From Gammaproteobacteria bacterium (lineage in GTDB: Bacteria > Pseudomonadota > Gammaproteobacteria > Steroidobacterales > Foliamicaceae), in NCBI GenBank assembly GCA_963666765.1, contig OY762933.1, forward strand, positions 1,854,553-1,918,552: a stretch of DNA of 64,000 bases, read 5' to 3'. The notes below the pieces were generated by a model that saw only the letters and a list, made by a program, of their open reading frames with translations, did not search any database and was not told the origin of the DNA. The translations under genes and the position numbers were made by a program. Below, piece by piece: positions 4,148 to 64,000 of the stretch (within the stretch, counting starts at the first letter, position 1; every line of letters begins with the position of its first letter).

Positions 4148-4259
4148 GGTGAGTGACGCGCCCCCTCCCTGTCGGGAGTTTGTGAGCCAGGGATGGCGGA
4201 ACAAAGCTCCATGGATGGATTCATGCGTCTCCCGACAGGGAGGGGGCGCGTCACTCACC
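4148..4259. repeat. Perfect 31-bp inverted repeat flanking a 50-nt spacer (large hairpin)
   Basis: ggtgagtgacgcgccccctccctgtcgggag (4148-4178) is the exact reverse complement of 4229-4259. The element is intergenic, between the helicase stop (4285) and the small-ORF start. Confidence 0.9.
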
Positions 4260-10014: not shown

Positions 10015-10983
10015 CTAGTCCCAGGTGAGGTCCACGCCGATGTTCCTGCTCTCGGCGTTGCGAAAAGCGGCAATGGCGGCGGCCAGGTCCTGGGCGGCGA
10101 CGCCCAGCGACTTGTAGACGGTGATTTCCGCTTCGTCGCGCCGCCCGGCAACCTTGCCGTCCAGCACTTCGCCGATCTCTCCGGCGATGTGCGATTCGGA
10201 CACGGCGCCTGCCCCGATTGCAGACAGCAATTCACCCGCCTGGTCCATTGCGGAGGCCCGGTAATCCACGAAGAAGCGCGAGCGGGTCACTACGTCAACA
10301 TCGGCTTCCGCCGCGCTGGCGATGGCGGCCCCGACCAGGTTCACGTGACAACCGGACGCCAGCCATTTCCCCTCAAGCACCGGGGTTGCGGCGGACGTGG
10401 TGGTGCAGACGATGTCGGCGCCCTCCACGGCCTCACGCGCGCTGCCGGCAAGGCAGGCGGAAGCGGGCAGCCCCTGCGCCATCCGCCGGGCGTGGGATTC
10501 CGTCCGTCCCCAGATCCGTATTTCGCTGATCGCCCGCACGCAGGTCAGTGCCTGAGCATGGTGCCGAGCCTGGGCGCCGGTGCCGAGTATGGCCAGCGAC
10601 GCGGCATCGGCGCGCGCCAGGACACGCGTGGCCAGCGCGCTGGCCGCGGCCGTCCTGATCGCGGTCAGTTCGCTGCCGTCCAGCAGGGCAAGCGGTATGC
10701 CTTCCTCGCTGTCGAAGATCATTACGGCGCCCACATGGGAACCGTACGGGCTGTCCGCCGAGCGCGGATACTTGGACACGATCTTGACGCCGAATGTACA
10801 CGGTTCGCCCAGGTACCCCGGCATCAGGGTGAACTTTCCGCCGTGCTCCGGGATGTCCATGTATCTGCGCAGCGGCATGATGGTGTCGCCGCGGGATACC
10901 GCGCGCATGGCGGACTCCAGCGCATCAATGCACTCGGCATGCGAGAGCGCTTCGGCGACCGCCTCCCGGTTGAGAATGCGCAT
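10015..10983 (-). CDS. Ornithine cyclodeaminase / mu-crystallin family protein
   Basis: 322 aa. LAILGTGAQARHHAQAL is a Rossmann motif. Overall similarity to the OCD family is judged by eye. Confidence 0.75.
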   Translation of the reverse strand: MRILNREAVAEALSHAECIDALESAMRAVSRGDTIMPLRRYMDIPEHGGKFTLMPGYLGEPCTFGVKIVSKYPRSADSPYGSHVGAVMIFDSEEGIPLALLDGSELTAIRTAAASALATRVLARADAASLAILGTGAQARHHAQALTCVRAISEIRIWGRTESHARRMAQGLPASACLAGSAREAVEGADIVCTTTSAATPVLEGKWLASGCHVNLVGAAIASAAEADVDVVTRSRFFVDYRASAMDQAGELLSAIGAGAVSESHIAGEIGEVLDGKVAGRRDEAEITVYKSLGVAAQDLAAAIAAFRNAESRNIGVDLTWD

Positions 10984-15705: not shown

Positions 15706-15832
15706 GGAAATCGCCGCGAGCGCAGACTGCCCTTACCTGGAAACGCCGACAGGCACATCCCTGTGGGCTCGGTGTCGGCATCCCTGCCTCCAACGTTCCA
15801 GGGAAGGGCAGTCTGTGCTCGCGGCGATTTCC
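15706..15832. repeat. 127-bp palindromic element with 35-bp inverted termini (33/35 match)
   Basis: ggaaatcgccgcgagcgcagactgcccttacctgg (15706-15740) pairs with 15798-15832. An inner stem gccgaca/tgtcggc is also present. The element starts 2 nt after the stop of the preceding gene. Confidence 0.85.
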
Positions 15833-49422: not shown

Positions 49423-50073
49423 ATGGCAAGGCGTAAGAAATCCGGTTCCGGCGTCGGTCGCGGGGGCGCGTTCGTGGCGGGCATCGTTCTGGGGCTGTTG
49501 CTGGCCCTGTGGGTCTATCCCATGTTCACCGCATGGTTGTCTGAGCCTTCATCCGGCACGCCGGCGGAAAATCCTTCCTCGTCGCCAACCTTCGATTTCT
49601 ACGATATCCTCGAACGAGGCGAGGAGGTCGTCGAGGAGACCCTGGCATCAAGGCCGGCGGAAGCAGGCGAATCGGCCACCGCCTCACCGGCCCCCGAGCC
49701 ATCCGCTTCCGAACCTGCCGCCGAACCATCCACTTCCGAAGCGGTTCCCGAAACCGTGGCCGCCGCCGCAGATCCCGCGGACTCGCCGGTATCGGCGTCC
49801 GAGCCCGGACCCCCCGCGCCCAGCCCGGTGGATACGCCGGGGATGTACGTCCTGCAGATGGGCGCGTTTACCCGCCAGACCCAGGCGGAATCCCTGAAGG
49901 CGAGGCTGGCGCTCGTCGGCATGACCGCGCGCATTCAGCCGGTGATGGTGGACCGGCAAACCTATTACCGTGTCCGAATCGGCCCCACCGACGACCTCGC
50001 GCAACTGAATGCCGACCGCGGCCGGCTGCAGCAACATCGATTCGACTCCATCCTTCTGAAGCTGGTCCAGTAG
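49423..50073 (+). CDS. SPOR-domain membrane protein
   Basis: A TM segment (FVAGIVLGLLLALWVY), a Pro/Ser/Glu-rich linker, and a C-terminal SPOR fold (YVLQMGAFTRQTQAESLKARL...YYRVRIGP). The ATG is 2 nt after the argS stop. Confidence 0.8.
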   Translation: MARRKKSGSGVGRGGAFVAGIVLGLLLALWVYPMFTAWLSEPSSGTPAENPSSSPTFDFYDILERGEEVVEETLASRPAEAGESATASPAPEPSASEPAAEPSTSEAVPETVAAAADPADSPVSASEPGPPAPSPVDTPGMYVLQMGAFTRQTQAESLKARLALVGMTARIQPVMVDRQTYYRVRIGPTDDLAQLNADRGRLQQHRFDSILLKLVQ

Positions 50074-50075
50074 CG

Positions 50076-51140
50076 TTGATTTCCAAATCACGGGCCCGCG
50101 CCTACCGCGAGGCTATTCGACAAGGCTTCCCCTGGCGCGCCATTGCCGAGACGCCCACGCCGGTGGACCGGCACGCTTCCCTGGCCGAAGAACTTGGCGC
50201 CCGCTCGGCGTGGATCAAGCGCGACGACATAAGCGGCGCAAAACACGGCGGCAACAAGCTGAGAAAGCTCGAGTTCCTGCTGGCGGACGCGCTGGCGGGC
50301 GATTACCGTGGCGTGCTCACCTATGGCGCCGTAGGCTCCAATCACATTCTCTCCACCTCGCACTCCGCGCGCAGCGTCGGCCTGGAATGCTGCGGAATTG
50401 TCCGCCCTCAGGCACCCACCCCCTATGTCGAGGAAACGCTTCGCTATCACCTCCTCCTGGGGACCCGCCTGGTTCCGGCGGCCGACCACGAGGCAACCGC
50501 GCGGGAGCGCGAGCGGATGCTTGCCGAAGAGGGCGCCTGGTACGAGATACCGCTTGGCGGTTCTTCGGTGCTGGGTTGTCTGGGTTACGTTTGCGGCGCC
50601 CTGGAGCTGGCCGAGCAGGTCAAGTCCGGTGAATGTCCCGCCCCGGACCTGATCTACCTGCCGTGCGGGTCCTCCGGCAGCACGCTGGGACTCGACCTCG
50701 GCCTTTCGCTGTGCGGGCTTCCCACGCGCATAGTGGCCGCGCGCGTCGTGTCCGACGACATGACCTCGATGAGCAGAATCCGTTCGCTGGCCGGGCAACT
50801 CAGGCAGCTCCTTGATGGCGTCTGCCCTCTGCCCGCAGGACAGCCCTTGCAACGCGTGGAGTTCCGCACGGAGTTTCTGGGCACCGGCTACGCGCTGCCC
50901 ACCGACGAGGCGCTGGCCGCCATCGAACTCATGAAAAACATGACGAATACGCGACTGGAGTACACCTACTCGGGGAAGGGCGCGGCGGCCATGCTGAGCG
51001 ACGGGCGCGAGGGACGGCACAAGAACCTCAATGTGCTGTTCTGGAATACTTACAATTCGCGCCCGGCGCCTGCTGCCCTGCCGCCCCTGAGACGTGATGA
51101 ACTGCCCGATGTGATGCGGGCGAGTCTGCCGGCGGCCTAG
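50076..51140 (+). CDS. PLP-dependent ACC deaminase / D-cysteine desulfhydrase family protein
   Basis: GGNKLRKLEFLLADA contains the PLP lysine context, and GAVGSNHI is present. TTG start as listed; the start is uncertain. Confidence 0.7.
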   Translation: MISKSRARAYREAIRQGFPWRAIAETPTPVDRHASLAEELGARSAWIKRDDISGAKHGGNKLRKLEFLLADALAGDYRGVLTYGAVGSNHILSTSHSARSVGLECCGIVRPQAPTPYVEETLRYHLLLGTRLVPAADHEATARERERMLAEEGAWYEIPLGGSSVLGCLGYVCGALELAEQVKSGECPAPDLIYLPCGSSGSTLGLDLGLSLCGLPTRIVAARVVSDDMTSMSRIRSLAGQLRQLLDGVCPLPAGQPLQRVEFRTEFLGTGYALPTDEALAAIELMKNMTNTRLEYTYSGKGAAAMLSDGREGRHKNLNVLFWNTYNSRPAPAALPPLRRDELPDVMRASLPAA

Positions 51141-51160
51141 GCCTGGCACCAGTCCGCGCC

Positions 51161-51916
51161 GTGAGCGACTCGCTGCCGCTGGAATTCCTGCCGCTGCTGG
51201 CGCTGGCGGGCTGTGCGGCAGGCTTCCTGAACGTCATGGCGGGCGGTGGCTCGCTGCTGACGCTGCCGTTGATGCTGCTGGCCGGCATTCCCGCGCCGAT
51301 CGCCAACGGAACCCTGCGCGTGTCGATCGTCGCCCAGAACCTGGTTGCGTTGAGCACCTTCCGGCGACACGGGTTCACCGAGCTGAAGGAAGCCATGTTC
51401 CTTTCGCTTTTCGCCTGCGCCGGCGCGGTGGGCGGCGCCTCGCTGGGGGTGCGGGTGGAAGGCCCGTGGTTTGACCGCATCGTGGCGCTGACCATGGTGG
51501 TCTGCACGCTGCTGATCCTTCGTCGTGGAAAGGCCAGGTCCGCGCCTGCGCCGGGCAGGGGACGCCGCTGGCTGGGCTATGCGGCATTGGTCTTTGCCGG
51601 CGCCTGGGGCGGCTTCATTCAGGTCGGCGTGGGGTTTCTGCTGATGCCGGCGCTTAACCGCATCCTCGGCATGGACCTCGTGCGCGTGAACATGTACAAG
51701 GTCGTAATCATCGTGCCGTATACGGTACTGGCTCTGGCGGTTTTTGCCTGGCAATCGGAAATCCTGTGGCTGGTCGGCCTTGCGCTGGCGATCGGCAATT
51801 CCATCGGGGGCTGGCTGGGCGCCCGCCTTACGGTATCCAGGGGGGAGCCCCTCATTCGCGCCGTGTTCCTGATCGCCGTCGCGGCCATGGCGGCAAGCCT
51901 GCTGCTGCGAGGCTGA
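51161..51916 (+). CDS. TauE/SafE (TSUP) family anion exporter
   Basis: 251 aa, polytopic, with FLNVMAGGGSLLTLPLMLL at the N-terminus and a repeated half-structure. Confidence 0.7.
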   Translation: MSDSLPLEFLPLLALAGCAAGFLNVMAGGGSLLTLPLMLLAGIPAPIANGTLRVSIVAQNLVALSTFRRHGFTELKEAMFLSLFACAGAVGGASLGVRVEGPWFDRIVALTMVVCTLLILRRGKARSAPAPGRGRRWLGYAALVFAGAWGGFIQVGVGFLLMPALNRILGMDLVRVNMYKVVIIVPYTVLALAVFAWQSEILWLVGLALAIGNSIGGWLGARLTVSRGEPLIRAVFLIAVAAMAASLLLRG

Positions 51917-51923
51917 GGTCCCC

Positions 51924-51938
51924 AGGGCGTCCCGCCCT
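51924..51938. terminator. Short GC palindrome between convergent genes
   Basis: The sequence is agggcgtcccgccct (6-bp stem, 3-nt loop). It overlaps the stop of the downstream minus-strand gene. Confidence 0.3.
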
Positions 51939-52575
51939 ACGGCGTCACCGACCAGGTATACGTTTCGCTGCGCAGAACCAGGCCGAATCCCAGCCGCCCG
52001 GTAACGTTGCGCCGCCACCAGTCCGACTCGTCGGGAAACAGCCGTGCCTGCACGGAGAAAACGTGCGGTTGCCCCCGCGGCAGTTCATTCTCGCCAACCA
52101 GGGGCTGATCCGCCACATAACCGATCTTGCGCAAGGCGGAGAACATCGTCGCGAATTCCGCCCGGGCGTCCGCCGACGGGGAACTGACGACAAAGCGGTC
52201 GGCCTCGCGGTCGAATTCCAGATAAAGGGTGCGCATCACACTCGTAAGCTGACGGTCGGGAATCAGCGCCCGTGGTTGCGCCACAGCGAATTCAACCTCT
52301 ACTCTCAGCCTCAGGCCCTCACGCACAAGCCGCTCGGCTTCCGCATCCAGCTCGATGTCGACCCGCGTGGTCACCAGCCAGCTTCCCCCATCGGCCCGCG
52401 CGTAGGCCAGGCGTACGTCGATCTCCGAGGCCGGCGCCGCCAGCGGCAGGCATAGCAGGCACAGCAGCGCCAGCAGCCCGTGGCCGACAACGCGCCACCG
52501 GCGCGTTGTCGCCGCGCCGCGCCGGGCCCGGGCAGGCGAATCAATCAATCTGAAGCGGCTTTTCGAGCAGCGCAT
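51937..52575 (-). CDS. Secreted protein, DUF4390-like (conserved neighbour of rsmB)
   Basis: Signal-like LLALLCLLCLPLAAPASE. The position directly after rsmB matches what I recall for DUF4390. The start is uncertain because the listed start overlaps rsmB by 35 nt. Confidence 0.5.
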   Translation of the reverse strand: MRCSKSRFRLIDSPARARRGAATTRRWRVVGHGLLALLCLLCLPLAAPASEIDVRLAYARADGGSWLVTTRVDIELDAEAERLVREGLRLRVEVEFAVAQPRALIPDRQLTSVMRTLYLEFDREADRFVVSSPSADARAEFATMFSALRKIGYVADQPLVGENELPRGQPHVFSVQARLFPDESDWWRRNVTGRLGFGLVLRSETYTWSVTP

Positions 52576-53875
52576 TGAAATGTCCGTCGGCGCAGCGCCT
52601 CCCCGGCAACAACTGATAGCCGTGTCGCGCCAAAGGCAACGCCCACCCGCCGGACACGCCGCCGCCCCTCACTTCACGGACCAAGCCCCTATTTTCGCCC
52701 AGAAAGCGCCGGATTACATCATCGGTTTCTTCCGGCAACACCGAGCAAACGCTGTACAGCAGCCGACCGCCGGGTTTAAGCAGCGGCCAGAGGCTGTCGA
52801 GCAGCCTCCCTTGCAGACTCGCGAAGGGAGCAATGTCCTGATCACGGCGCAGATGCTTGATGTCGGGATGGCGCCGAATGACGCCGGTGGCCGAACAGGG
52901 CGCATCGAGCAGAATGCGGTCGAACGCCACCCCCTCGAACCACTGGGCGGGCCGCAAGGCATCGCCGCGGCGAACGCTGGCGCTCAGGCCGAGCCGCGCA
53001 AGATTCGCCTCAAGCCGCGCAAGCCGATCGCCATCCTTGTCCAGCGCCACCAACTCGCCAAGCTGCGGGCACAGCTCCAGCAATTGCGCGGTCTTGCCGC
53101 CGGGCGCCGCACAGGCATCCAGGACACGCATTCCGGGGCGAACGCCGAGCAGCGGCGCGGCCAACTGCGCCCCGGCGTCCTGAATCGAGACCAGACCCTC
53201 GCCAAAACCGGGCAATTGGCCGGCAGCCGCCGGCGGGTCGATACGCAGGGCGCCCGAAAGATAATCAGGCAGGCTGCAACGCCATAGTCCGGTGGCGGTT
53301 GCCTGTGCCCGATACGATTCGCGACTGGACCTTGCCGGATTGACCCGCAGCCACATCGGAGGCTTGCGGTTGCCGGCCCGCAGAATCGACCGCCAGTGAC
53401 CCGGCCAAGCGGCCTGCAAGCGGCGGATCAGCCACTCAGGATGCGAGTAGCGGCCCTCAAGGCTTTGGTCGGCCGCGTCCTCCAATCGAGGACTTTCCCG
53501 CAGATAGCGGCGCAGGACCGCGTTGACCGCGCCGACCTGGGCCGGCCGGAGCAGCGCCTTGGCCGCAGATACGCAGGAATTCACGGCGGCATGGTCCGGT
53601 ATCCGCGTGCGGGCAAGCTGGAACAGCCCTACGGACAATAGCGCGGCGAGCCTGGCGGGCGGACGCGGCCGATCCATCATTTGTTCCAGCAACTTGATGT
53701 GCCGCTGGTGCCAGCGCAACGCCCCCAGCGCCAGTTCCGAAGCCAGTGCCTGCCGTCCGGGCGCCAACGCCGGATATCCGGCTTCTTCCAGCGCCGGCCG
53801 GTAACTCCGTCCCCGGAGCACGCCGTACACCGTCAGCGCGCTTACCCGCCGCGTCCCGGCGCCGGACTCGCTCAT
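52541..53875 (-). CDS. rsmB: 16S rRNA (cytosine967-C5)-methyltransferase
   Basis: A NusB-like N-terminal domain is followed by a methyltransferase domain ([37 protein letters not shown]). The ATG at 53875 overlaps the fmt stop (ATGA). Confidence 0.9.
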
Positions 53876-54807
53876 GTCAGTATCGCTTCCGCCAGGGACG
53901 CGCCGCGCGCTGCGTCGCTTGCGGGCATTCGGCGGCGGCCCGGCAATTGCACCTCCAGCACACGCAACGCGCCGGAGACGGTCGCCACGTCCATACCGTC
54001 CCGGGAAACACTGAGAACGCGGCCGGGCCTGCCCGAGCCGGACCCGAGCGCCTGTGCCCGCCAAAGCCGCAGCGGCCTGTCGCCCCACATTGCATGCGCG
54101 ACCGGCCAGGGATCGAAAGCGCGCACGTGGCGGGCAAGCGCCTCGGCGGGCTTCGACCAGTCCAGGCGGCCCTGCCGCTTGCTGATCATCGGCGCGTAAC
54201 TGGACAGGGCCGTGTCCTGGGGAACGGCTTCAAGCTCCCCGGCGAGGACGGCCGGAAGCTGCTGAAGCAGAAGATCGGCGCCGAGCCCGGCCAACCGCAT
54301 CTCCAACGCTCCCGCCGTCTCATGCGGCTCCATGCGGGTGCGCCGGGCCGCCAGCAGCGGGCCCGTGTCCAGGCCGGCATCCATTTGCATCAGGGTGACC
54401 CCGGTATGGCTGTCGCCGGCCAGAATCGCCGCCGCTACCGGCGACGCGCCGCGCCAACGGGGCAGAAGCGACGCGTGTATGTTGACCGCTCCCCGGCGGC
54501 AGGCCTCAAGCGCGGCAGCCGGCAGAATCGAGCCATAGGCCGCCACAACCAGCAGATCGGCGCCGAAGTCCTCAAGTTGCCTTGCCAGCGAGGCGTCGCT
54601 CCAGTTTGCGGGCTGCAGCAGCTTGAGCCCAACCTCCTGCGCCCATTGCTTGACCGGGGAGGAAGTCAGCCTGCGGCCGCGGCCGGCGGCGCGATCGGGT
54701 CGGGTGATCACGGCCGGGATGCGGTAATCCGCGCCATGCAGGGCGCGCAGCGCCGTCAGCGCAAACCCGGGCGTGCCTGCAAACAGAATCCTCGCAGGCG
54801 CAGTCAT
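53872..54807 (-). CDS. fmt: Methionyl-tRNA formyltransferase
   Basis: [26 protein letters not shown], and a typical length of 311 aa. Confidence 0.95.
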
Positions 54808-54831
54808 CGGGAATTGAAAGCGATGGCCGCG

Positions 54832-54997
54832 CTAGCAGCCCGTGGCAGAACCCCGCGTCGCATCGAGAACGGCGAGACGCCCGCCTGGCAAGGCGCGAGG
54901 AGCGCGCATATCGGGAATATGCAAGCGACGAGCAACGCAGTCCAGGCGGGATGGATCGCCGGTCGAATGCAGCGGGGCTTCTGCCACGGGCTGCTAG
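54832..54997. repeat. 166-bp palindromic element with perfect 19-bp CTAG-terminated inverted repeats, inserted between def and fmt
   Basis: ctagcagcccgtggcagaa (54832-54850) is the exact reverse complement of 54979-54997. Imperfect pairing continues inward (ccccgc/gcgggg, cccgcctgg/ccaggcggg). The def TAG stop lies inside the right arm. Confidence 0.9.
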
Positions 54998-55515
54998 AAC
55001 TCCAGGGCCGCGGGCCTGCCGGTCCGCTCGGCCTTCTCCATGCGTTTGCGCAACATGCGGCGCTTGAGCGGGGACAGGTAGTCGATGAACAACTTGCCGT
55101 CCAGGTGATCGATCTCATGCTGAATGCAGATCGACGCAAGTCCCTCCAGTTCCTCCTCCAGCGGCTCCATCTCCGCCGTATAGGCCCGGACCCGGACCCG
55201 CTCGGCGCGCGGCACTTCGGCGGTGAACTCGGGCACCGACAGGCAGCCCTCCTCGCTGACCACCTCGCCCTCGGAGGAAACGATTTCCGGGTTGACGTAG
55301 CAGCGGGGCGTATCGCGTTCCTCGGAAACGTCCATCACCAGCACGCGCTCGGCGACATTCACCTGGATTGCCGCGAGACCGACGCCCTTGCGCGCGTACA
55401 TGGTCTCGAGCATGTCGTCGGCGAGCTGCCGCAATCGTTCGCCGGCCACCGCTACCGGCCTGGCCTTGCGGCGCAGCCGCCGGTCGGGAAACGTCAGTAC
55501 TCTCAGTTCCGCCAT
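54994..55515 (-). CDS. def: Peptide deformylase
   Basis: GVGLAAIQV, EGCLSVPE and HEIDHLDG motifs. Confidence 0.95.
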   Translation of the reverse strand: MAELRVLTFPDRRLRRKARPVAVAGERLRQLADDMLETMYARKGVGLAAIQVNVAERVLVMDVSEERDTPRCYVNPEIVSSEGEVVSEEGCLSVPEFTAEVPRAERVRVRAYTAEMEPLEEELEGLASICIQHEIDHLDGKLFIDYLSPLKRRMLRKRMEKAERTGRPAALEF

Positions 55516-55555
55516 GGGTGTGGTATTTTCCCACAGTCACCAAAGGAATTCCCGC

Positions 55556-56641
55556 ATGGATGCAGAACCTTGGATTACCCTGCAATTGTGTCCCGCGCTG
55601 TCGCCATTGCTGCGGCTCAGGCTGCTCAGGCGATACGGCGAGGCACATGCCATCATTGCCGCGCCGGGCAACGAACTGCTGCAAGCCGGCCTGAAACCAT
55701 CCGGCCTGAAATGGCTGCGGCAGCCGGACCCCGCCGTAATCGCACCCTGTCTGGACTGGCTTGCCAGGGACGGCGCTCACCTCGTCCCGTTTTCCGACAC
55801 GCGCTTTCCGTCGCTGTTGCGTGAAATCGACGACCCGCCCGCGGCGTTGTTCGTCCTGGGAGAGGTTGACGTGCTGGCCGAGCCGCAAATCGCAATCGTG
55901 GGCAGCCGCGCGGCAACGCCCCTGGGCCGGTCGACCGCGGCGGACTTTTCCCGCGCGCTCTGCCGCCGCGGCCTCTCCATCGCCAGCGGACTCGCCGAAG
56001 GCATTGATGCGGCGGCGCACGAAGCGGCCGTGGACTGCGGCGGCGCCACCGTCGGGGTAAGCGCGACCGGACTGGACCGGGTCTATCCGCGGCGCAACAG
56101 CGAACTTGCCCGCCGCATCGCGACCGTCGGCGCGCTTGTCTCGGAAAACCCGCCCGGCATCGAATTGCAGCAATGGATGTTTCCCCGCCGCAACCGGATC
56201 ATCAGCGGCATGTCGGTGGGCGTGCTGGTCGTTGAGGCAGCCGCCCGCTCCGGGGCGCGCATCACGGCTCGAACAGCGGCCGAGCAGGGCCGCGAAGTGT
56301 TTGCCGTACCTGGATCGATATACAGCCCGCAGTCTCGCGGCTGCCACGCGCTGATCCGCAACGGCGCCAAGCTCGTCGAGCGGCCGGAAGACGTGCTGGA
56401 GGAGCTGCCGGCGCTGCTGCAGGCCTGCTCCGCCGAACCCGCGGCGCCGGATGCTCTCGAACACGTGCCCGGAGAGCTGCCGCTGCTGGACGAGCTCATG
56501 CGGCATGGCCCCGTCGGCATGGATGAACTGGTAAGCCAGACCGGGCGTGACGCAGCCGAGCTTTCCGCTGAACTCGCGCGCCTTGAACTTGACGGCCGCG
56601 TACATTCGCTGCCGGGCGGGCGGTTTCAGTACGGTCGCTAA
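55556..56641 (+). CDS. dprA: DNA-processing protein DprA (Smf)
   Basis: IAIVGSRAATPLG, GLAEGIDAAAH and AVPGSIYSPQSRGCHALIRNGAKL. Trimmed to the ATG at 55556. Confidence 0.9.
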   Translation: MDAEPWITLQLCPALSPLLRLRLLRRYGEAHAIIAAPGNELLQAGLKPSGLKWLRQPDPAVIAPCLDWLARDGAHLVPFSDTRFPSLLREIDDPPAALFVLGEVDVLAEPQIAIVGSRAATPLGRSTAADFSRALCRRGLSIASGLAEGIDAAAHEAAVDCGGATVGVSATGLDRVYPRRNSELARRIATVGALVSENPPGIELQQWMFPRRNRIISGMSVGVLVVEAAARSGARITARTAAEQGREVFAVPGSIYSPQSRGCHALIRNGAKLVERPEDVLEELPALLQACSAEPAAPDALEHVPGELPLLDELMRHGPVGMDELVSQTGRDAAELSAELARLELDGRVHSLPGGRFQYGR

Positions 56642-56748
56642 AGTAGTGCTAGGATGCGCGGTCGATTTCTATGGAGTTAGGGTAGTAAAAGGCGCAGCAG
56701 CCAAATGAATTCTTCCACGACATACCGACCCATGCAGGTCATCACCCC

Positions 56749-59502
56749 ATGACGCGAAACGCCGGCGATAGGGCCGCGGGGGGCCTGATCGTGGTCGAAT
56801 CTCCCGCCAAGGCGCGAACCCTGCAGCGCTATCTGGGCAAGGACTACCGGGTTCTGGCGTGCAACGGACATGTACGGGATCTGAAGAGCGGCGGCCTGGC
56901 AATCGACACGAAGAAGGGATTCGAAATGGAGTTTGAGCCGGTGGAAAGCTCGAAGGCCGCGGTGGCGCGGATACGCCGCGCGCTGGCCGGGATGCCGGCC
57001 CTGTATCTCGCAACCGACCCCGACCGCGAGGGCGAGGCCATCGCCTGGCACCTCCTGGAACTGTTGTCGGATGAGGGGGCGCTTGAAGAAAAGCAGGTTC
57101 ACCGGGTGGCCTTCAACCAGATCACGCGCAGTGCGGTCAACAAGGCAGTCGACGATCCTCGCGACGTTTCCATGCCGCTGGTGGACGCACAGAAGGCCCG
57201 GCGTTGCATGGACCGGCTGCTCGGATTCACCCTTTCGCCACTGCTGTCGCGGATACTCACCCGCGGCCTTTCGGCGGGCCGGGTGCAGAGTCCGGCCCTG
57301 CGGCTGATCGTGGAACGGGAAAAGGAAATCGAGGCGTTCAGGCCGCGCGAGTACTGGACCATTGCCGCACACCTCGGCAAGGACGGCCAGGACTTCGAGG
57401 CGGCCCTCGTGGAGCTGAACGGCGAGAAGCTGAAGAAGTTCTCGCTGGGAGATGCCGCAGCAACCGAACAGGCCCGCGAAGCGCTCCTGGCGGCAATGCG
57501 GGACGGCGCATCAGGCGACGGCCCGGGAGTCTTGAGCGTAGCCAACGTCACGCCCACCCGCGCAAAGCGCTCTCCGCCCCCGCCGTTCACGACCTCGACC
57601 ATGCAGCAGGCCGCCTCACGCCAGATCGGCATGCAGGCGCAACGGACCATGCGGGTGGCGCAGTCTCTGTACGAGGGGGTCGATACCGGCAGCGGGGCGG
57701 TTGGACTGATCACGTACATGCGGACCGATTCCGTGCAGATGGCGCGCGAAGCGGTACAGGAGATCCGGGAATACGTCGGCAAGGAACTGGGCGCCGATTA
57801 CCTTCCCGCGTCGCCGCGCCGGTACCGCACCAAGACCCGCAACGCGCAGGAAGCGCATGAAGCGATACGGCCGACAAGCATCGCCAACACTCCGGAATCG
57901 CTCAGGAGCCGGCTGGATTCCGACCAGTACCGCCTGTACGGCATCATCTGGCGGCGCGCCGTCGCCAGCCAGATGAGCGACGCCCTGTACGACCGTGTGA
58001 GCGCCGAGTTCACGCCTGGCAAGGCATCTGCCCAAAGTCCGGATGGCGACCCGGCGGGACGCTTCCGGGCCACCGGGAACACGCTTGCGCATCCGGGCTT
58101 TCTCAAGGTCCTGGCACGCTCCGCGGACAGCAGGGACAAGGCGCTGCCAGCGCTGAAGAAGGGCGACATACTGGACGTGCGCGACCTCGCCAGCGAACAG
58201 CATTTCACCGAACCTCCGCCGCGCTACAGCGAGGCGAGTCTGGTCAAGGCGCTTGAAGACCATGGAATCGGGCGGCCTTCCACCTACGCCGAGACCCTGC
58301 GCAAGATCCGCGACCGCGAGTACGCGGTCATGGAAAAACGCAACTTCATGCCCACTCAGAAAGGCAGGCTGGTGGCTGATTTCCTTACCCGCCATTTCAA
58401 CAATTACGTCGATTACGACTTCACCGCGGGCATGGAGGAATCGCTGGACGCGGTGGCCAACGGGGAAAAACACTGGGTCCCGGTGATGGATGAGTTCTGG
58501 GGCCATTACTCGGAGCAACTCGCGGAGAAGAAGCGCACGCTCAAGGGCGTCGAGGAACGCCCGAGGCGGCTGCTGGGCGAGCATCCGGAATCCGGGGAAC
58601 CGGTCTATGCCCGGCTGGGGCCCTACGGCTACTTCGTACAGCTCGGCGAGCGCACCGAGACCCATCGCCCGCCGGTGGCCACTATGCGCGAAGGCCTCAA
58701 TTACGAGGATGTCACGCTCGAACAGGCGCTGGAATTGCTGCGTGGTCCGCGTCCGCTGGGACAGGATCCTGCCACCGGCCAGCCGGTCTATGCGGGGAGC
58801 GGCCGCAACGGTCCGTACGTGCAACTGGGGGAGAAGGGCGGCGAGGAGAAACCGAAATACGCCTCGCTGACGGACGGCCTGAGCGAAGAGTCGGTGACGC
58901 TGGAGGAAGCCCTGAAGCTGCTTTCCCTGCCGCGGGACCTGGGGCCGCATCCGGAAATCGGCGCCATGGTCTATGCGGGGCGGGGACGCTTCGGACCGTA
59001 CGTTCAACTCGGCGAGCGCGGCAAGGAAAAACCGAAATACGCTTCCCTGCCCCCCGACATCTCTCCGTACACGGTCACGCTGGACGAGGCGGTGGCCCTG
59101 CTCCGTCTGCCGCGCAAGCTCGGAGAGCATCCGGAAAACGGCCGGCCCGTTTTTGTCGGCTGCGGTGTCAAGGGGCCGTACGTGCAGATCGGGGAACGGG
59201 GCGGCAAGACCCGGCCCAGATATATCCGCCTGCCGAAGCCGCTCTCGGTGTTCACCCTGACGCTGGAGGAAGCGCTCAAGGTCCAGCCGGCGCGGCGCGC
59301 AAGCCAGCGGGCAATCAAGGAATTCGAGGACGGCGCAATCAGGATACTGGACGGCCGATACGGCCCGTACGTCACCGACGGATCACGCAACGCCTCGGTG
59401 CCGCGTCAACAGGATCCCTCCGCCCTGTCGCTGGAGGAATGTCGCGAACTTCTCAAGAATGCGCGGAAGAAAGGAACACGGAGAAGATCAGCCCGGCGCT
59501 GA
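56749..59502 (+). CDS. topA: DNA topoisomerase I (type IA) with five cysteine-free C-terminal repeats
   Basis: Toprim LIVVESPAKARTLQ, active-site region YMRTDS, and C-terminal repeats G(P/R)YG(Y/P)(F/Y)VQLGE...KPKYASL. Confidence 0.95.
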   Translation: MTRNAGDRAAGGLIVVESPAKARTLQRYLGKDYRVLACNGHVRDLKSGGLAIDTKKGFEMEFEPVESSKAAVARIRRALAGMPALYLATDPDREGEAIAWHLLELLSDEGALEEKQVHRVAFNQITRSAVNKAVDDPRDVSMPLVDAQKARRCMDRLLGFTLSPLLSRILTRGLSAGRVQSPALRLIVEREKEIEAFRPREYWTIAAHLGKDGQDFEAALVELNGEKLKKFSLGDAAATEQAREALLAAMRDGASGDGPGVLSVANVTPTRAKRSPPPPFTTSTMQQAASRQIGMQAQRTMRVAQSLYEGVDTGSGAVGLITYMRTDSVQMAREAVQEIREYVGKELGADYLPASPRRYRTKTRNAQEAHEAIRPTSIANTPESLRSRLDSDQYRLYGIIWRRAVASQMSDALYDRVSAEFTPGKASAQSPDGDPAGRFRATGNTLAHPGFLKVLARSADSRDKALPALKKGDILDVRDLASEQHFTEPPPRYSEASLVKALEDHGIGRPSTYAETLRKIRDREYAVMEKRNFMPTQKGRLVADFLTRHFNNYVDYDFTAGMEESLDAVANGEKHWVPVMDEFWGHYSEQLAEKKRTLKGVEERPRRLLGEHPESGEPVYARLGPYGYFVQLGERTETHRPPVATMREGLNYEDVTLEQALELLRGPRPLGQDPATGQPVYAGSGRNGPYVQLGEKGGEEKPKYASLTDGLSEESVTLEEALKLLSLPRDLGPHPEIGAMVYAGRGRFGPYVQLGERGKEKPKYASLPPDISPYTVTLDEAVALLRLPRKLGEHPENGRPVFVGCGVKGPYVQIGERGGKTRPRYIRLPKPLSVFTLTLEEALKVQPARRASQRAIKEFEDGAIRILDGRYGPYVTDGSRNASVPRQQDPSALSLEECRELLKNARKKGTRRRSARR

Positions 59503-60049
59503 CGCGGCCATCCGCAAGGGCGTCCACGTCCTTCGCGGCGGCGGCGTGATCGCCTACCCCAACGAGTCGGTCTACGGGCTCGGTTGCCTGCCCCGGGACG
59601 AGAAGGCTGTCGAGCGCTTGCTCAGACTCAAGGGCCGCGACCGGTCACTGGGCCTGATCCTTGTTGCCGGCGAATGGGAGCAGTTCGAAAGCTGGGTGGC
59701 GGACCTCTCCACTGCGGCGGATTCGGCGGGGCTGCGCGAAAGCGAGGGCATTACCTGGGTGATGCCCGCTTCCCCGAACACGCCGGCGTGGATCACGGGC
59801 GGGCGCGATACCGTAGCCGTGCGCGTGAGCCTGCACCCCCTGGCCGCCGTATTGAGCCGGGCGCTGGATAGTCCCGTGGTGTCCACCAGTTGCAATCCGC
59901 ACGGCATGCCGCCCGCCCGCACCGAGCGGGAGGCCCGGCATTATTTCGCGGGCGAGGTCGACTGGATCATGCCCGGCGAGTGCGGCCCGCTTGAAGGACC
60001 GACCGAAATCCGCGACGCGGCCACCGGAGCGGTGTTGCGCCCGGCATAA
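59459..60049 (+). CDS. tsaC: L-threonylcarbamoyladenylate synthase TsaC (YrdC family)
   Basis: GGVIAYPNESVYGLGC, LKGRDRSLGLILV and VVSTSCN. The listed start overlaps the end of topA, so the start is uncertain. Confidence 0.8.
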   Translation: MRGRKEHGEDQPGADAAIRKGVHVLRGGGVIAYPNESVYGLGCLPRDEKAVERLLRLKGRDRSLGLILVAGEWEQFESWVADLSTAADSAGLRESEGITWVMPASPNTPAWITGGRDTVAVRVSLHPLAAVLSRALDSPVVSTSCNPHGMPPARTEREARHYFAGEVDWIMPGECGPLEGPTEIRDAATGAVLRPA

Positions 60050-60082
60050 TGGCCGGATTGCAGCGTGACACGGCCTGGATTA

Positions 60083-60727
60083 ATGATTACATTCGCCGAA
60101 GAGACTCTGACGCTTCTTCTCGACGACAAGACCGGCGCCTTCCTGCCGATCGGCAAGTACGCGCTGGAGCACGCCCTGGTGGGAGGCATCCTGATGGACC
60201 TGGCCTTCGCCAATCGCATCGACACCGATCCGGAGCAAATGATCGTCATCAATGCGACCCCCACGGAGAACCCCATGCTGGACCAGGTGCTCAAACGCAT
60301 CAGCGGCAGCGATCAAACCAGGGACACCGCGGCCTGGCTGGAGATCATTTCCGAGGAGCAGGGAGAGTCCATTCAGGAACAGGCCATCGAAAGCCTGATC
60401 GCGCGGGGCGTGCTGGAGCGCAAGGAGGAGAAGTTCCTCTGGGTGTTCCGTTCCCGGCGCTATCCGATGATGGACGGCGAGTTGCAGCGGGAGGCCCGGC
60501 AGCGGGTGGTAGGGGTGCTTTTCTCGGGCGACATTCCCGATCCCCGCGACATCGCCCTGATCTGCATAGCCGACGCCTGCGGCCTGCTCAAGACCGTCTT
60601 CGGCGAGAAGGAACTCGACGAGGTCTCTCCGCGCCTCGATCAACTGCGCAAGATGGACCTGATCGGCCGGGAACTGATCACCCAGTTGTCCGTCTGGCGC
60701 TGGTCCGGCACCATCACCCGCATCTAG
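60083..60727 (+). CDS. GPP34 (GOLPH3/Vps74-like) family protein
   Basis: The N-terminus MITFAEETLTLLLDDKTGAF and the helical pattern resemble bacterial GPP34 proteins, from memory. The start is the ATG at 60083 or the GTG at 60065. The TAG stop lies inside the neighbouring repeat terminus. Confidence 0.55.
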   Translation: MITFAEETLTLLLDDKTGAFLPIGKYALEHALVGGILMDLAFANRIDTDPEQMIVINATPTENPMLDQVLKRISGSDQTRDTAAWLEIISEEQGESIQEQAIESLIARGVLERKEEKFLWVFRSRRYPMMDGELQREARQRVVGVLFSGDIPDPRDIALICIADACGLLKTVFGEKELDEVSPRLDQLRKMDLIGRELITQLSVWRWSGTITRI

Positions 60728-60993
60728 TGTGCTGTCCCATAAGTTCGTTGCCTTTCAGAGCGGGCCTGAAGCGTCAATGCAAGGCGCCGTCCGCAGGGAA
60801 TACTGCACGTATTGCCCAGGGCGGCAACGCCGCAGTGGCGCTTCAGGCCCGCTCCCGAAGGGCGCGGCCCCTGTGGCCCGTGGCCGCGTTGCGCTCCTGG
60901 GCAATGGGAACCACCATTCCCGGCGGAACGCGCCTTGCCACACGCCGCAGGGGACGCGCTGAAAGGCAACGAACTTATGGGACAGCACACTAG
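60724..60993. repeat. 270-bp MITE-like element with perfect 35-bp CTAG-terminated inverted repeats and nested internal hairpins
   Basis: ctagtgtgctgtcccataagttcgttgcctttcag (60724-60758) is the exact reverse complement of 60959-60993. The internal stem agcgggcctgaagcg (60759-60773) pairs with cgcttcaggcccgct (60839-60853), and there are several longer-range pairings. The termini are less GC-rich than the surrounding sequence. Confidence 0.9.
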
Positions 60994-61000
60994 CTCGCGA

Positions 61001-61594
61001 TCAGTTCCAGGGAAGCCCGGCAAAAGCTTCCCGGCACTCCCGGTAGCGGAAGCAGCGCACCAGGTGATCGTTGATCAGGCCGCAGGCCTGCAGGTGGGAA
61101 TACACGATGGTAGAGCCCACGAACTTGAATCCCCGGGCCTTGAGATCGGCTGAAAGTCGGTCGGAAAGCTCCGAAGTGGCCGGCAGTTCATTCTGGCTGC
61201 GCCATCGGTTGACGACCGGCCTACCGTCCACAAATCCCCAGATATAGCGCGCGAAGGAGCCGAATTCCTCGCGGACCTCCAGGAAGCGGGAGGCGTTATT
61301 GACGGCGGCCGTGATCTTCTGCCGGTTACGGATGATGCCGGCGTCCGCGACCAGGGCCTCGATTTCCGCTTCGCCGAACCGCGCGACGCGAACCGGATCA
61401 AAGCCGGCGAAAGCCCGCCGATAGCCTTCCCGCTTGTGCAGCACGGTCCTCCACGACAGACCCGCCTGCGCGGATTCAAGGATCAGAAATTCGAAATGGA
61501 CGGCGTCATCGAGAACGGGCAGTCCCCATTCTTCATCGTGATAGGCCTGGTATTCGTCGCTCACGCCGAGCGACCACGGACACCGTTGGCGCAT
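61001..61594 (-). CDS. tag: DNA-3-methyladenine glycosylase I
   Basis: CPW...YHDEEWGLPVLDD, and the C-terminal zinc-ligand context HLVRCF. Confidence 0.9.
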   Translation of the reverse strand: MRQRCPWSLGVSDEYQAYHDEEWGLPVLDDAVHFEFLILESAQAGLSWRTVLHKREGYRRAFAGFDPVRVARFGEAEIEALVADAGIIRNRQKITAAVNNASRFLEVREEFGSFARYIWGFVDGRPVVNRWRSQNELPATSELSDRLSADLKARGFKFVGSTIVYSHLQACGLINDHLVRCFRYRECREAFAGLPWN

Positions 61595-61645
61595 TCAGAC
61601 GCTACGCCCCCGCCTGGCTGCCGGCGCATTCATGCCGGCCGTCCT

Positions 61646-61689
61646 GGACGATGCAGCCGGCGAGCCCGCGAGCCCGCCGGCTGTCGTCC
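61646..61689 (-). terminator. GC-rich hairpin downstream of the small peptide gene
   Basis: ggacga(tg)cagccggc pairs with gccggctgtcgtcc: a 14-bp stem with a 2-nt bulge and a 14-nt loop. There is no clear U-tract. Confidence 0.35.
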
Positions 61690-61716
61690 TGAATCAGCTA
61701 CCGAAGTAGCGGCAAT

Positions 61717-61953
61717 TTATTCTTCTTCGCCGTCTTCGTCGCCGCAGCTGCCTTCGCCGCAGCTACCGTCTTCGTCGCCGTCTTCGTCGCCGCAGCTGCC
61801 TTCGTCGTCGCCATCATCACCATGGCCGTCCATCAGTGACGGAAGCTCGGGTGCATGGGAGCCGTCAACGGCTGCAGCAGCCGGGCCGGCAACGCCGGCG
61901 GCGAGAGCTGCGCTAAGGGCAAGGGCGAGTAGTTTGCGTTCAGGACTGGTCAT
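61717..61953 (-). CDS. Small secreted acidic peptide with three (E/D)GSCG repeats
   Basis: The ATG at 61953 lies 7 nt after GGAGG. The signal peptide is MTSPERKLLALALSAALAAGVAGPAAAA. The mature part is VDGSHAPELPSLMDGHGDDGDDEGSCGDEDGDEDGSCGEGSCGDEDGEEE. The DNA shows the corresponding tandem repeats. Confidence 0.65.
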   Translation of the reverse strand: MTSPERKLLALALSAALAAGVAGPAAAAVDGSHAPELPSLMDGHGDDGDDEGSCGDEDGDEDGSCGEGSCGDEDGEEE

Positions 61954-62154
61954 AAAAATGCCTCCAGTTTGTAGCTTTGTTCCCCTGTTCAGGGACACTT
62001 AAGGCCGCATGCCCGTAAACGAACACCCGGCCGATGCGGGAATGATTCCTCCCGCTACGGAAGTCTAGCACACAGTTACTAAGCTACCGGCAACCAGACT
62101 TCTGCGGTACGCTTCGTCCGGAATGGCGCTCCGGATTCAGATGGGCTCAGGGAA

Positions 62155-62958
62155 ATGTCAGAAAAATACGCCGTAATGGGATACCCGATCGAACACAGCC
62201 GTTCGCCGGAAATACATGCCCACTTCGCCTCGCAACTGGGTTTGCAATTGGAGTACCGGCGCATTGAGGTGCGCCCGGGTTCCCTGTTGTCGGCGGTCGA
62301 AAGCTTCAGGACGGACGGCGGTCTGGGCTGCAACATCACCGTGCCGCTGAAGGAGGAGGCCGCGGAGTTGAGCGACGAGCTCGGTCCCGAAGCCAGGCAG
62401 GCCGGGGCGGTGAATACGCTGACCGCAAGGCCGGGTGGCCGATTAAGGGGGGACAACACCGACGGGCTCGGCCTGGTCCGCCAGTTGCGCACTAACCTGA
62501 GCGTAGACCTCGAAGACTACAGGGTGCTGATGATCGGCGCCGGCGGCGCCGTTCGTGGCGTGCTGCCGGCACTGCTGGCCGCGGGCGTCGGAGAGATCGT
62601 CATTGCCAACCGCACCCGGAGTCGTGCACTGGACCTGGCCCGGCGCTTTGCTTCTTTCGGAGAAATCCACGTAGTCGATCCCGGCAACAGGGAACTGCCG
62701 GGGGCGGAACTTGTAATCAATGCAAGTTCAGCGGGATTGGCCGGTCTGCCGCCCGCGCTGTCCCCGGCCGCCGCGGAGGGTGCATTGTGCCTGGACCTGG
62801 CTTACGGCCGCGCGGCCGAGCCGTTTCTGGCCTGGGCGCAAGAGGGCGCCGCCCGCGCTGCCCACGATGGTTGGGGCATGCTGGTCGAACAGGCGGCCGA
62901 GAGCTTTTCCATCTGGCACGGCAGGCGTCCGGACACAAGAGATCTGCTCGGCATGTGA
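62155..62958 (+). CDS. aroE: Shikimate dehydrogenase
   Basis: YAVMGYPIEHSRSPEIH, NITVPLKE, NTDG and MIGAGGAVRGV. Confidence 0.9.
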   Translation: MSEKYAVMGYPIEHSRSPEIHAHFASQLGLQLEYRRIEVRPGSLLSAVESFRTDGGLGCNITVPLKEEAAELSDELGPEARQAGAVNTLTARPGGRLRGDNTDGLGLVRQLRTNLSVDLEDYRVLMIGAGGAVRGVLPALLAAGVGEIVIANRTRSRALDLARRFASFGEIHVVDPGNRELPGAELVINASSAGLAGLPPALSPAAAEGALCLDLAYGRAAEPFLAWAQEGAARAAHDGWGMLVEQAAESFSIWHGRRPDTRDLLGM

Positions 62959-62990
62959 TCGCCGGCGGCCGTATTCGGCGCGCCTGCGAA

Positions 62991-64000
62991 TCAGCGCATG
63001 GTCACGAGTTCTTCGGCCGCCGTGGGATGGATGGCCACGGTGTCATCCAGGTCCGACTTACAAGCGCCCATTCGTATCGCCACTGCGAAACCCTGCAGCA
63101 TCTCGTCGGCGCCGGGGCCGGCCAGGTGGCAGCCCACCACTCTTTCCTCGGAGCCCACCGTGACGAGTTTCATGCGCGCCTTGGGCTTGTTCTCCGAGAT
63201 GCCGTAAAACAGCGGAACGAAATCGGCCCGGTAACAGCGCACTGCATCTCCGTAAGTCTCGCGTGCCTCCCGCTCGGTCAGGCCGACGGCTCCCAGCGGC
63301 GGGTGGGTAAACACCACGGTGGGGATGTTGCTGTAATCCATGCGCCGGCCAGCCATTCCGCCAAATTGGCGGTCCGCCCAGCGGCGGCCGGCGGCAATCG
63401 CCACCGGCGTGAGTTCGTGGTGCCCTGTGACGTCGCCCAGGGCAAACACGCCCTCAGCCGTGGTCTCCTGCCATTCGTCCACTTCGATGGCGCCGCGTGC
63501 GTCGCATTGCACTCCGGCAACGTCGAGGTTCAGATCCGCGCTGCGCGGACGCCTTCCCACGGCCCACACAAGGACATCGAAGGGGCCGCTGCTTTCTCCC
63601 GAAGCCGCCTTTAGACGAAGACCCTGGGAATCGCTGGAGACCGCGCCGGGGACGAACCCCTTTGCAACGCGCACGCCCGATGCGGCAAGGCCCTCCATGC
63701 AGGCCTGCTGCAGGATATCGTCGAAGCGGCGCAGCACCGAATCGCGCCTGAGGTGCAGGGTTACGGCCGTACCAAGGCCTTGCAGGATCCCGGCCAGCTC
63801 CACGGCGATATAGCCGGCGCCGACGACCGCCGCGCTTGCCGGCCGCCGCTCGAGCTCGAAGAATCCGTCGGAAGTGATTCCGAGTTCGGCCCCCGGAATC
63901 CCGGGCACGACCGGGGCGCCGCCGGTGGCGATGAGAATCCGCTCGGCGGAGTACTCCTCGCCTGCGACGCTCAGCACGTGTGGCGCCGAAAAGGCAGCAT
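62991..64000 (-). CDS. gor: Glutathione-disulfide reductase (C-terminal about 336 aa; N-terminus outside window)
   Basis: AVVGAGYIAVELAG is the second dinucleotide fold, and the C-terminus reads AIHPTAAEELVTMR. The frame is open to the window edge. Confidence 0.8.
   Translation of the reverse strand, partial: AAFSAPHVLSVAGEEYSAERILIATGGAPVVPGIPGAELGITSDGFFELERRPASAAVVGAGYIAVELAGILQGLGTAVTLHLRRDSVLRRFDDILQQACMEGLAASGVRVAKGFVPGAVSSDSQGLRLKAASGESSGPFDVLVWAVGRRPRSADLNLDVAGVQCDARGAIEVDEWQETTAEGVFALGDVTGHHELTPVAIAAGRRWADRQFGGMAGRRMDYSNIPTVVFTHPPLGAVGLTEREARETYGDAVRCYRADFVPLFYGISENKPKARMKLVTVGSEERVVGCHLAGPGADEMLQGFAVAIRMGACKSDLDDTVAIHPTAAEELVTMR

Follow-up and report, generated by a model that had tools for sequence, protein, structure and literature searches.

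A previously undescribed family of CTAG-flanked miniature inverted-repeat transposable elements in uncultured Gammaproteobacteria

The 64,000-nucleotide stretch of DNA analysed here (positions 1,854,553 to 1,918,552 of contig OY762933.1, assembly GCA_963666765.1, from a Gammaproteobacteria bacterium), hereafter called the window, carries at positions 60724-60993 a 270-bp sequence with perfect terminal inverted repeats (TIRs), situated between a gene for a GPP34-like protein and the tag gene. This sequence, which we designate family A, is very probably a non-autonomous DNA transposon, i.e. a bacterial miniature inverted-repeat transposable element (MITE), that entered a CTAG and regenerated the stop codon of the GPP34-like gene. 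Dispersed copies and polymorphism at the insertion site identify it as mobile DNA. A first-pass annotation made from the letters of the window had called the sequence MITE-like, and this description holds, as the element is multi-copy, dispersed, non-coding and bounded by TIRs, and relatives have an empty site; as to the contrary possibility named there, a single-copy sequence with no related termini, both copies and related termini exist.

Results

Structure of the element

With the CTAG at each end included, the element occupies exactly the coordinates first proposed for it. The left TIR (60724-60758, plus strand) and the right TIR (60959-60993, minus strand, located by inverted-repeat searches) are 35 nt long and perfect reverse complements of each other, and the inverted repeat reaches 39 nt at 97% identity. 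Allowing up to three mismatches, the terminus is found in just these two places in the window, where shuffled sequences lead one to expect 0.00 matches. The termini had been noted as lower in GC than the genome, and the measured values are 49% for the terminus against 65% for the window and 72% for the interior of the element. The left CTAG (60724-60727, plus strand; TA at 60725-60726; empty site cgcatCTAGccc in relatives) contains the TAG at 60725-60727 that ends the GPP34-like gene, in accordance with the earlier remark that the left terminus supplies this stop, and a TAA in frame with it follows within the left TIR at 60740-60742. The right CTAG (60990-60993) is the target-site duplication, as judged from comparison of filled and empty sites and from the sequence of most junctions in the family.

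The predicted fold of the element is a Y and not a rod, with a terminal stem of 34-35 bp and two hairpin arms of 97 and 98 nt separated by a 7-nt linker, CCCGAAG (60855-60861 in the folds; 6 of its 7 positions are the same in the two subfamilies described below). The minimum free energy of the RNA is -203 kcal/mol (z = -17.2 against shuffles) and that of the opposite strand -199, while DNA parameters give -123.5 (z = -16.8). The left arm (60758-60854, plus strand) consists of a 16-bp stem and a core in which GCAAGGCGC, CCGCAGGGAAT, ATTGCCCAGG and GCAACGC succeed one another, and scores 103.4 bits with our arm covariance model, R1. The right arm (60862-60959, minus strand) aligns with the left one as its homologue in opposite orientation and scores 99.6 bits on the minus strand. 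The 15-bp hairpin reported earlier (60759-60773 with 60839-60853) corresponds to the basal part of the left arm. The long-range pairings reported with it (attgcccagg with cctgggcaat, gcaaggcgc with gcgccttgc) are present as sequences, but they appear because the two arms are homologous in opposite orientation, and do not reflect pairing of one arm with the other.

The element has no coding capacity, and the open reading frames (ORFs) of 99 and 113 aa that cross it gave no match in Pfam. Rfam 15 gave 0 matches at gathering score across the whole window, and a permissive search of 60650-61070 returned sub-threshold generic hairpins, the best of them with 24.7 bits against a threshold of 90 for a miRNA hairpin. 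Scanning of the element for promoter patterns and for intrinsic-terminator patterns with a T-run found none.

Upstream lies the GPP34-family gene (60083-60727, plus strand, called as 214 aa), where the ORF 60065-60727 matches Pfam GPP34; all close homologues are 214 aa long, and the coding sequence is unaltered by the insertion. Downstream, the tag gene (3-methyladenine DNA glycosylase I, Pfam Adenine_glyco; 61001-61594, minus strand) is likewise untouched. Its TGA stop on the minus strand is at 61001-61003, so that the right terminus ends 7 nt from it, as had been stated.

The same site in relatives

The corresponding locus in relatives was reached through homologues of the GPP34-like protein. 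In four of them (L039-L042), whose GPP34 is 93-95% identical to that of the window, the site is empty and reads ...cgcatCTAGcccgatcgg..., against CTAG, the 270 bp and CTAGctcgcgatcag in the window, and the GPP34 and tag genes converge there and overlap by the CTAG, which forms both stop codons. The filled site reads ...cgcatCTAG, then TGTGC...GCACA, then CTAGctcgcgatcag..., that is, there is one CTAG when the site is empty and two when it is filled. It follows that the element entered the CTAG and duplicated either the TA or the whole CTAG; since CTAG is palindromic, a 2-bp and a 4-bp duplication give the same result. The earlier observation of CTAG at both ends, taken as compatible with a TA target duplication, thus agrees with the comparison of filled and empty sites. 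In four other relatives (L043-L045 and L048) the GPP34 gene ends in TGA, and neither CTAG nor element is present.

In one relative with 99% identical GPP34 (L052) the same CTAG holds a 72-bp element with the termini of a second family, B (see below), and a 1.6-kb insertion sequence (IS) assigned to the IS1380 family by NF033539 (414 bits). Each of the two is flanked by CTAG, which means that successive insertions entered a regenerated target. This locus is without the 270-bp element, and its downstream flank (cccacgatcag) agrees with that of the window in length and in the TGA stop, from which we conclude that the 270-bp insertion altered neither flanking protein. The region with the small family-B element and the IS is L052:10642-12331 (ENA ERZ25069711 ctg16982), and the ends of the IS are CCGCAATAATGC.../...GAAATATTGCGG.

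Copies, junctions and decay products

A 20-mer of the terminus was scanned by exact match over one genome per species, and metagenomes were scanned likewise. Among the genomes, matches were confined to two metagenome-assembled genomes (MAGs) of uncultured Gammaproteobacteria, OX639965.1 (3.1 Mb) with 8 loci and OY762064.1 with 1 locus. Eight of these nine loci hold full-length copies (7 in OX639965.1, 1 in OY762064.1) that are 94-99% identical to the window copy and have unrelated flanks, and OX639965.1 has 2 partial copies in addition. The metagenome scan added 28 loci, with 2 full-length copies, many copies cut by contig ends and one diverged subfamily; at least 11 matches are on LXNI01 contigs. 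ERZ25084381 contig_3 (ENA; L050 and L010) has an identical element and is here 99.4% identical to the window. In all, 11 full-length copies were aligned, at 94-99% identity, and the TIRs are retained by every copy and subfamily.

Decay products were also found. They include solo termini, an 84-nt internal-deletion derivative that retains both CTAG-flanked ends (L007:3726-3803), and, in L017, a remnant of 29 nt where L009 has a filled site; a deletion across a microhomology of GCC seems to have produced this remnant. Three small elements from other environments (L015:40-210, L024:4460-4656 and L020:245-305) combine the family-A terminus with unrelated interiors, the one in L020 being a 60-nt hairpin of the termini alone; among the sequences in these interiors are short palindromic motifs of wide distribution, for example gtcatcctgagcgaagcgaaggatc and cgggaatgac. 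A shared terminus with differing interiors is what one would expect of several deletion derivatives moved by one transposase. The arm hairpin was also considered as an independent, free-standing module and rejected as such, as R1 matches only family-A elements in the window and 265 kb of loci.

Neither the element nor its terminus had a meaningful blastn match in plasmid and phage collections, no family-A terminus was found in viral contigs, and a full-text search of the literature for the terminus sequence found no paper. With no match in Rfam, plasmids, phages or the literature text searched, this is a genuine and previously undescribed MITE family, which has so far been seen only in one small clade of uncultured Gammaproteobacteria and in some metagenomes from sediments and wetlands. 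Taken alone, the position between convergent genes would also suit a palindrome that arose by chance or a hairpin serving as an ordinary terminator. Such an origin has next to no probability in view of the zero matches expected by chance, the fold z of -17, the lack of a T-run terminator pattern, the dispersed copies and the presence/absence polymorphism at the locus, and copy number together with the empty site was taken to rule it out.

At most of about 50 element ends the junction reads CTA followed by GTGTGC. In OX639965.1 and OY762064.1 (L002-L009) the left junctions are intact, and 6 of 8 right junctions differ from CTAG (CTGG twice, CTTG twice, CAAG and CTGA). In other assemblies CTAG stands at both junctions in most copies and in all derivative elements. 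The changes on the right may be due to mutation bias, selection or a sequencing effect at a modified motif, and the left TAG, often a stop codon, may be protected thereby; this does not account for the rate of change on the right side.

The near-invariant left CTAG next to a right junction that varies in one genome, the arms that covary as hairpins and the very stable fold with DNA parameters would also be in line with movement of the element as folded single-stranded DNA by an HUH or tyrosine enzyme (RAYT/REP- or IS200/IS605-like), the 5' tetranucleotide being a site of recognition or cleavage and not a duplication. We regard such a mechanism as very improbable, since the presence of CTAG on both sides of the filled site, against one CTAG when it is empty, implies duplication, and most other copies, as well as all derivatives, have CTAG at both junctions. 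Long, perfect and symmetric TIRs are also not known from IS200/IS605 elements and REPs. The element was accordingly not placed in the REP/RAYT or IS200/IS605 class, which combines absence of duplication with asymmetric ends and a one-sided tetranucleotide, as it has symmetric 35-bp TIRs and its target on both sides.

CTAG rarity and stop codons

The window contains 17 CTAG sites, which is 8% of the number expected from mononucleotide frequencies and 40% of that expected under a Markov model. MITE ends make up 4 of the 17, and about 9 serve as the stop of an ORF, on either strand, that is at least 180 codons long. (GATC and TCGA are about 1.8-1.9-fold over-represented in the window.) The depletion of CTAG, with about half of the remaining sites being TAG stops, means that a CTAG-specific element is steered to the 3' ends of genes. 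In agreement with this, of about 44 independent element ends for which flanks are available, at least 14 adjoin a long ORF whose stop is precisely the duplicated TAG. At three ends (L003, L035 and L036) the CTAG is mutated, and the ORF runs 5 codons into the terminus and stops at the in-frame TAA (C TAG TGT GCT GTC CCA TAA). Relative to the upstream gene, 8 left and 4 right ends were counted, a bias that is not significant. As the stop codon is rebuilt on both strands, the element can sit between overlapping convergent genes without harm.

Subfamilies and covariation of the Y fold

The diverged subfamily, A2, is 268 nt long and was reconstructed from 7 wetland contig ends through a 123-nt perfect overlap. 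Its identity to the window copy is 93% in the termini, which are the best-conserved part of the element, 65-74% in the arm cores and 53-65% in the arm stems, and the reconstructed sequence is predicted to fold into the same Y. Covariation was analysed with 13 sequences and a consensus structure of 110 pairs, over which 98.4% of the cells are paired. Changes on both sides occur at 23 of the 110 pairs, against 8.5 ± 2.4 in shuffles (0 of 500 shuffles were as high), and a control with the partners slid by 1-3 columns gave 0-2 such changes. Helix 2 in the left arm accounts for 10 compensatory pairs and helix 5 in the right arm for 6. At pairs 143/235 and 152/226, intermediates are seen beside the compensated states among the A1 copies. 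These results are good evidence for the maintenance of base pairing within the arms. Candidate causes are a need of the element itself for hairpin or cruciform DNA, a role or the stability of a transcript, and template-switch correction of quasi-palindromes, a process that produces several 'compensatory' changes at once and needs no selection.

These observations bear on a reading in which the element is mobile and its Y fold is kept for a function, as a stabiliser in the 3' untranslated region, a processing site, a bidirectional transcription barrier or a protein-binding hairpin. The 23 compensatory pairs, the pairing kept in arms whose stems are only 53-65% identical between subfamilies, and the intermediates within the family would all be consistent with such a role; many copies lie directly 3' of a stop codon and would be co-transcribed, and transcripts of Correia and ERIC elements have been reported to affect neighbouring mRNAs (PMC2229807). 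Against this stand the absence of intrinsic terminator and promoter patterns in the element and of any Rfam family match, and the unbiased orientation with respect to the upstream gene. In addition, conservation of the arm cores exceeds that of the stems only modestly, and template-switch correction could give the same compensatory changes. Overall we consider a retained function of this kind unlikely. Also rather unlikely in our estimate is the bolder proposal that the arms go beyond passive filler, the three-way junction joining the CTAG-flanked ends so that the element would be moved or recognised as a folded single strand or cruciform, or its transcript would serve as a portable structured 3'-end module at stop codons. 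If true, this would make the element a structure-dependent, 'stop-codon-seeking' MITE and not a plain deletion derivative of an IS.

Other repeats in the window

A second MITE in the window, the 166-bp element between def and fmt (54832-54997), lies in the CTAG of the def stop codon, and its TIR is CTAG followed by CAGCCCGTGGCAGAA. This family B has its own empty target, GGCCGCGCTAGAACTCC, at L050:4905-4920. Further family-B coordinates in L052 are 1553-1718, 4750-4915 and 10642-10713; at another locus this contig has a copy with 97% identity, and the CTAG occupied by the 270-bp element in the window is taken up there by a copy reduced to 72 bp through internal deletion. For the copy at L052:1553-1718 no clean empty site was found, the relative having an indel there.

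It had been suggested that the 270-bp element might belong to the same family as the def-fmt element, and this was not borne out. The termini (CTAG followed by TGTGCTGTCCCATAAG in the 270-bp element and by CAGCCCGTGGCAGAAC in the 166-bp element) have nothing in common beyond CTAG, and the interior similarity is marginal. The 11-mer GGCAAGGCGCG, pointed out earlier as common to both, does occur once in each and nowhere else in the window. The best local alignment between the interiors is the 9-mer GCAAGGCGC, which 46 of 1000 dinucleotide shuffles equalled or bettered. The R1 arm model scores 14.6 bits on the 166-bp interior with E = 0.006 in 431 nt, a match that default filters miss and for which E extrapolates to about 1 at the scale of the window. 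The composite motif GCAAGGCGC-N-GGGAAT is confined to the three hairpins, but it was defined post hoc, after they had been seen. With such values homology of the 166-bp interior to the arms is marginal, and we conclude that the def-fmt element is of the same kind and has the same target as the 270-bp element, without demonstrably being of the same family.

Two further observations concern family B. A viral-classed contig (L051:1-96, IMG/VR UViG_3300050013_000327) starts with a family-B terminus followed by CTAG, and the 77 nt inside the terminus are unlike the 166-bp element, so this could be the end of a longer, possibly autonomous family-B element. To the right of the 166-bp MITE (54993-64000) L050 (ENA ERZ25084381 contig_3) agrees with the window at 99.4% identity, to the left of it (49884-54835) only at about 93%, and an apparent recombination boundary falls at the MITE site.

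Two more long hairpin repeats are found in the window at 4148-4259 and 15706-15832, with arms of 31 nt (perfect) and 37 nt (95%), respectively, and without CTAG ends. They have 80-88% similar copies elsewhere (L007:5273-5356 and L052:17323-17406; L005:1332-1405) and probably represent other repeat families.

Discussion

The findings are best explained by transposition of a MITE into CTAG. A DDE transposase encoded elsewhere would bind the conserved termini, cut out the element and paste it into the TA of a CTAG, whereby either the TA would be duplicated, in the manner of IS630/Tc1-mariner elements, or the whole CTAG, in the manner of IS5 and IS1380. The scarcity of CTAG and the share of TAG stops among the remaining sites, about half, would lead to preferential landing at the 3' ends of genes, where the duplication would restore TAG on both strands and the terminus would supply an in-frame TAA, so that flanking genes would stay intact and insertions be tolerated. 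At the window locus the insertion would thus have parted the GPP34-like and tag genes with both proteins unaltered. This scheme fits with what is described for related systems, and an IS630 origin as hinted at earlier would be plausible. A preference of IS630 for TA within 5'-CTAG-3' is attributed to Tenzen and Ohtsubo (1991) in PMC2170065, where the IS630 relative ISY100 is described as duplicating TA, and bacterial MITEs are known as small elements with TIRs, a target-site duplication, terminal TA and long stem-loop transcripts (PMC2229807).

Several points weigh against this interpretation. Neither the fetched loci nor exact-match scans of three collections, which would miss a partner with diverged termini, yielded an autonomous element bearing these termini, and the regions inside 7 solo termini encode ordinary genes (ComM, HlyD-like, HAD, a sigma-54 regulator and acyl-CoA dehydrogenase). 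A regular-expression search of 383 kb of sequence for the Tc1/IS630 signature Y-S-P-x-L-N-P-I-E gave no hit, and the plasmid and phage collections have no family-A match. The size of the duplication, TA or CTAG, is not separable in these data, the decay of right junctions in OX639965.1 and OY762064.1 is not predicted by simple TA duplication, and covarying internal hairpins are not required by a classical mechanism in which double-stranded TIRs are bound.

The lack of the IS630 signature is also in favour of a variant in which the transposase is of the IS5 or IS1380 type and duplicates the 4-bp CTAG, the true ends then being TGTGC...GCACA and not the TA-flanked ends of IS630/Tc1 elements. This variant is further supported by the CTAG-flanked IS1380-family IS at the same site in L052, from which CTAG-duplicating transposases exist in the lineage, and by MITEPsy1, thought to be derived from an IS5-family element, which duplicates CTAG or YTAA (PMC3189936). 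However, IS630 itself favours CTAG, according to the reference cited in PMC2170065. The termini of the IS in L052 (CCGCAATAATGC...) bear no resemblance to those of the MITE, and this IS was for that reason rejected as the partner. Furthermore, the terminus TA followed by GTGTGCTGTCCCATAAGTT is one that we take to be loosely similar to Tc1-type ends. An IS5- or IS1380-type transposase is hence a real but less likely possibility.

For annotation, our results mean that the region should be regarded as a mobile repeat and not as a terminator, a small RNA or a gene, and that the ORFs crossing it could mislead gene callers. They also indicate how MITEs can be tolerated in a compact, GC-rich genome: with CTAG depleted about 12-fold and about half of the sites being stops, elements land at 3' ends, the stop is rebuilt on both strands, and a TAA is added. 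The site itself has been used repeatedly, as among strains with at least 93% identical GPP34 one CTAG is found empty, with the 270-bp element, or with a second MITE and an IS1380-family IS. The copies are presence/absence markers of use in strain typing, and assemblies often break at them. The conserved Y fold is a possible test case for whether the structure of a MITE is selected or a mutational by-product. Nothing in these findings overturns current understanding; the targeting of stop codons, the reused insertion site and the covarying Y fold place the interest of the element slightly above that of a routine repeat.

Comparison with known systems

MITEs derived from IS630/Tc1-mariner elements, such as RUP of S. 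pneumoniae with IS630-Spn1, and IS630 itself resemble the element in several respects. The MITEs are small, non-coding and bounded by TIRs with TA at both ends, and they share with IS630 insertion in CTAG, given as its preferred target in work cited by PMC2170065, with duplication of the target (PMC2229807). In contrast to these MITEs, the element has longer TIRs (35 bp), no IS630-family partner with matching termini was found here, and the interior consists of two covarying hairpin arms instead of one stem-loop. With 270 bp it is also larger than the approximately 100-200 bp quoted for bacterial MITEs (PMC2229807).

MITEPsy1 of Pseudomonas syringae is likewise a bacterial MITE that enters and duplicates CTAG (or YTAA) (PMC3189936). 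It differs in its length of 100 nt, in its TIRs, which are 18 nt long and unrelated in sequence (GGAAGGTCTGAAAAAGCC), and in having a recognised IS partner, the IS5-family ISPsy2 from which it is thought to be derived, whereas none was found for the 270-bp element; its duplication is established as 4 bp, while 2 and 4 bp read alike in our case. Within the window, the def-fmt element is comparable in that it inserts in CTAG, has an empty site, is multi-copy with a hairpin interior and sits on a stop codon (def), but its termini are unrelated, it has a single arm, and its interior similarity is marginal.

The Correia/NEMIS elements of Neisseria and the ERIC/IRU elements of enterobacteria are intergenic palindromic MITEs with terminal TA and, like the element described here, no known dedicated transposase, and their stable stem-loop transcripts are reported to influence neighbouring mRNAs (PMC2229807). 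They form a single long stem-loop where the 270-bp element forms a Y, and IHF or promoter motifs were not identified in the latter; the sequence relation was compared via Rfam only. A parallel to the two arms is given by the CIR repeats of Caulobacter and Brucella, which have two long predicted hairpin arms and a linker and are conserved across taxa, but are without a terminal 5'-3' stem, are only partly MITE-like and carry the GANTC methylation motif (PMC2229807). The element is of a familiar kind and appears to work like the CTAG- or TA-targeting MITEs derived from IS630 or IS5.

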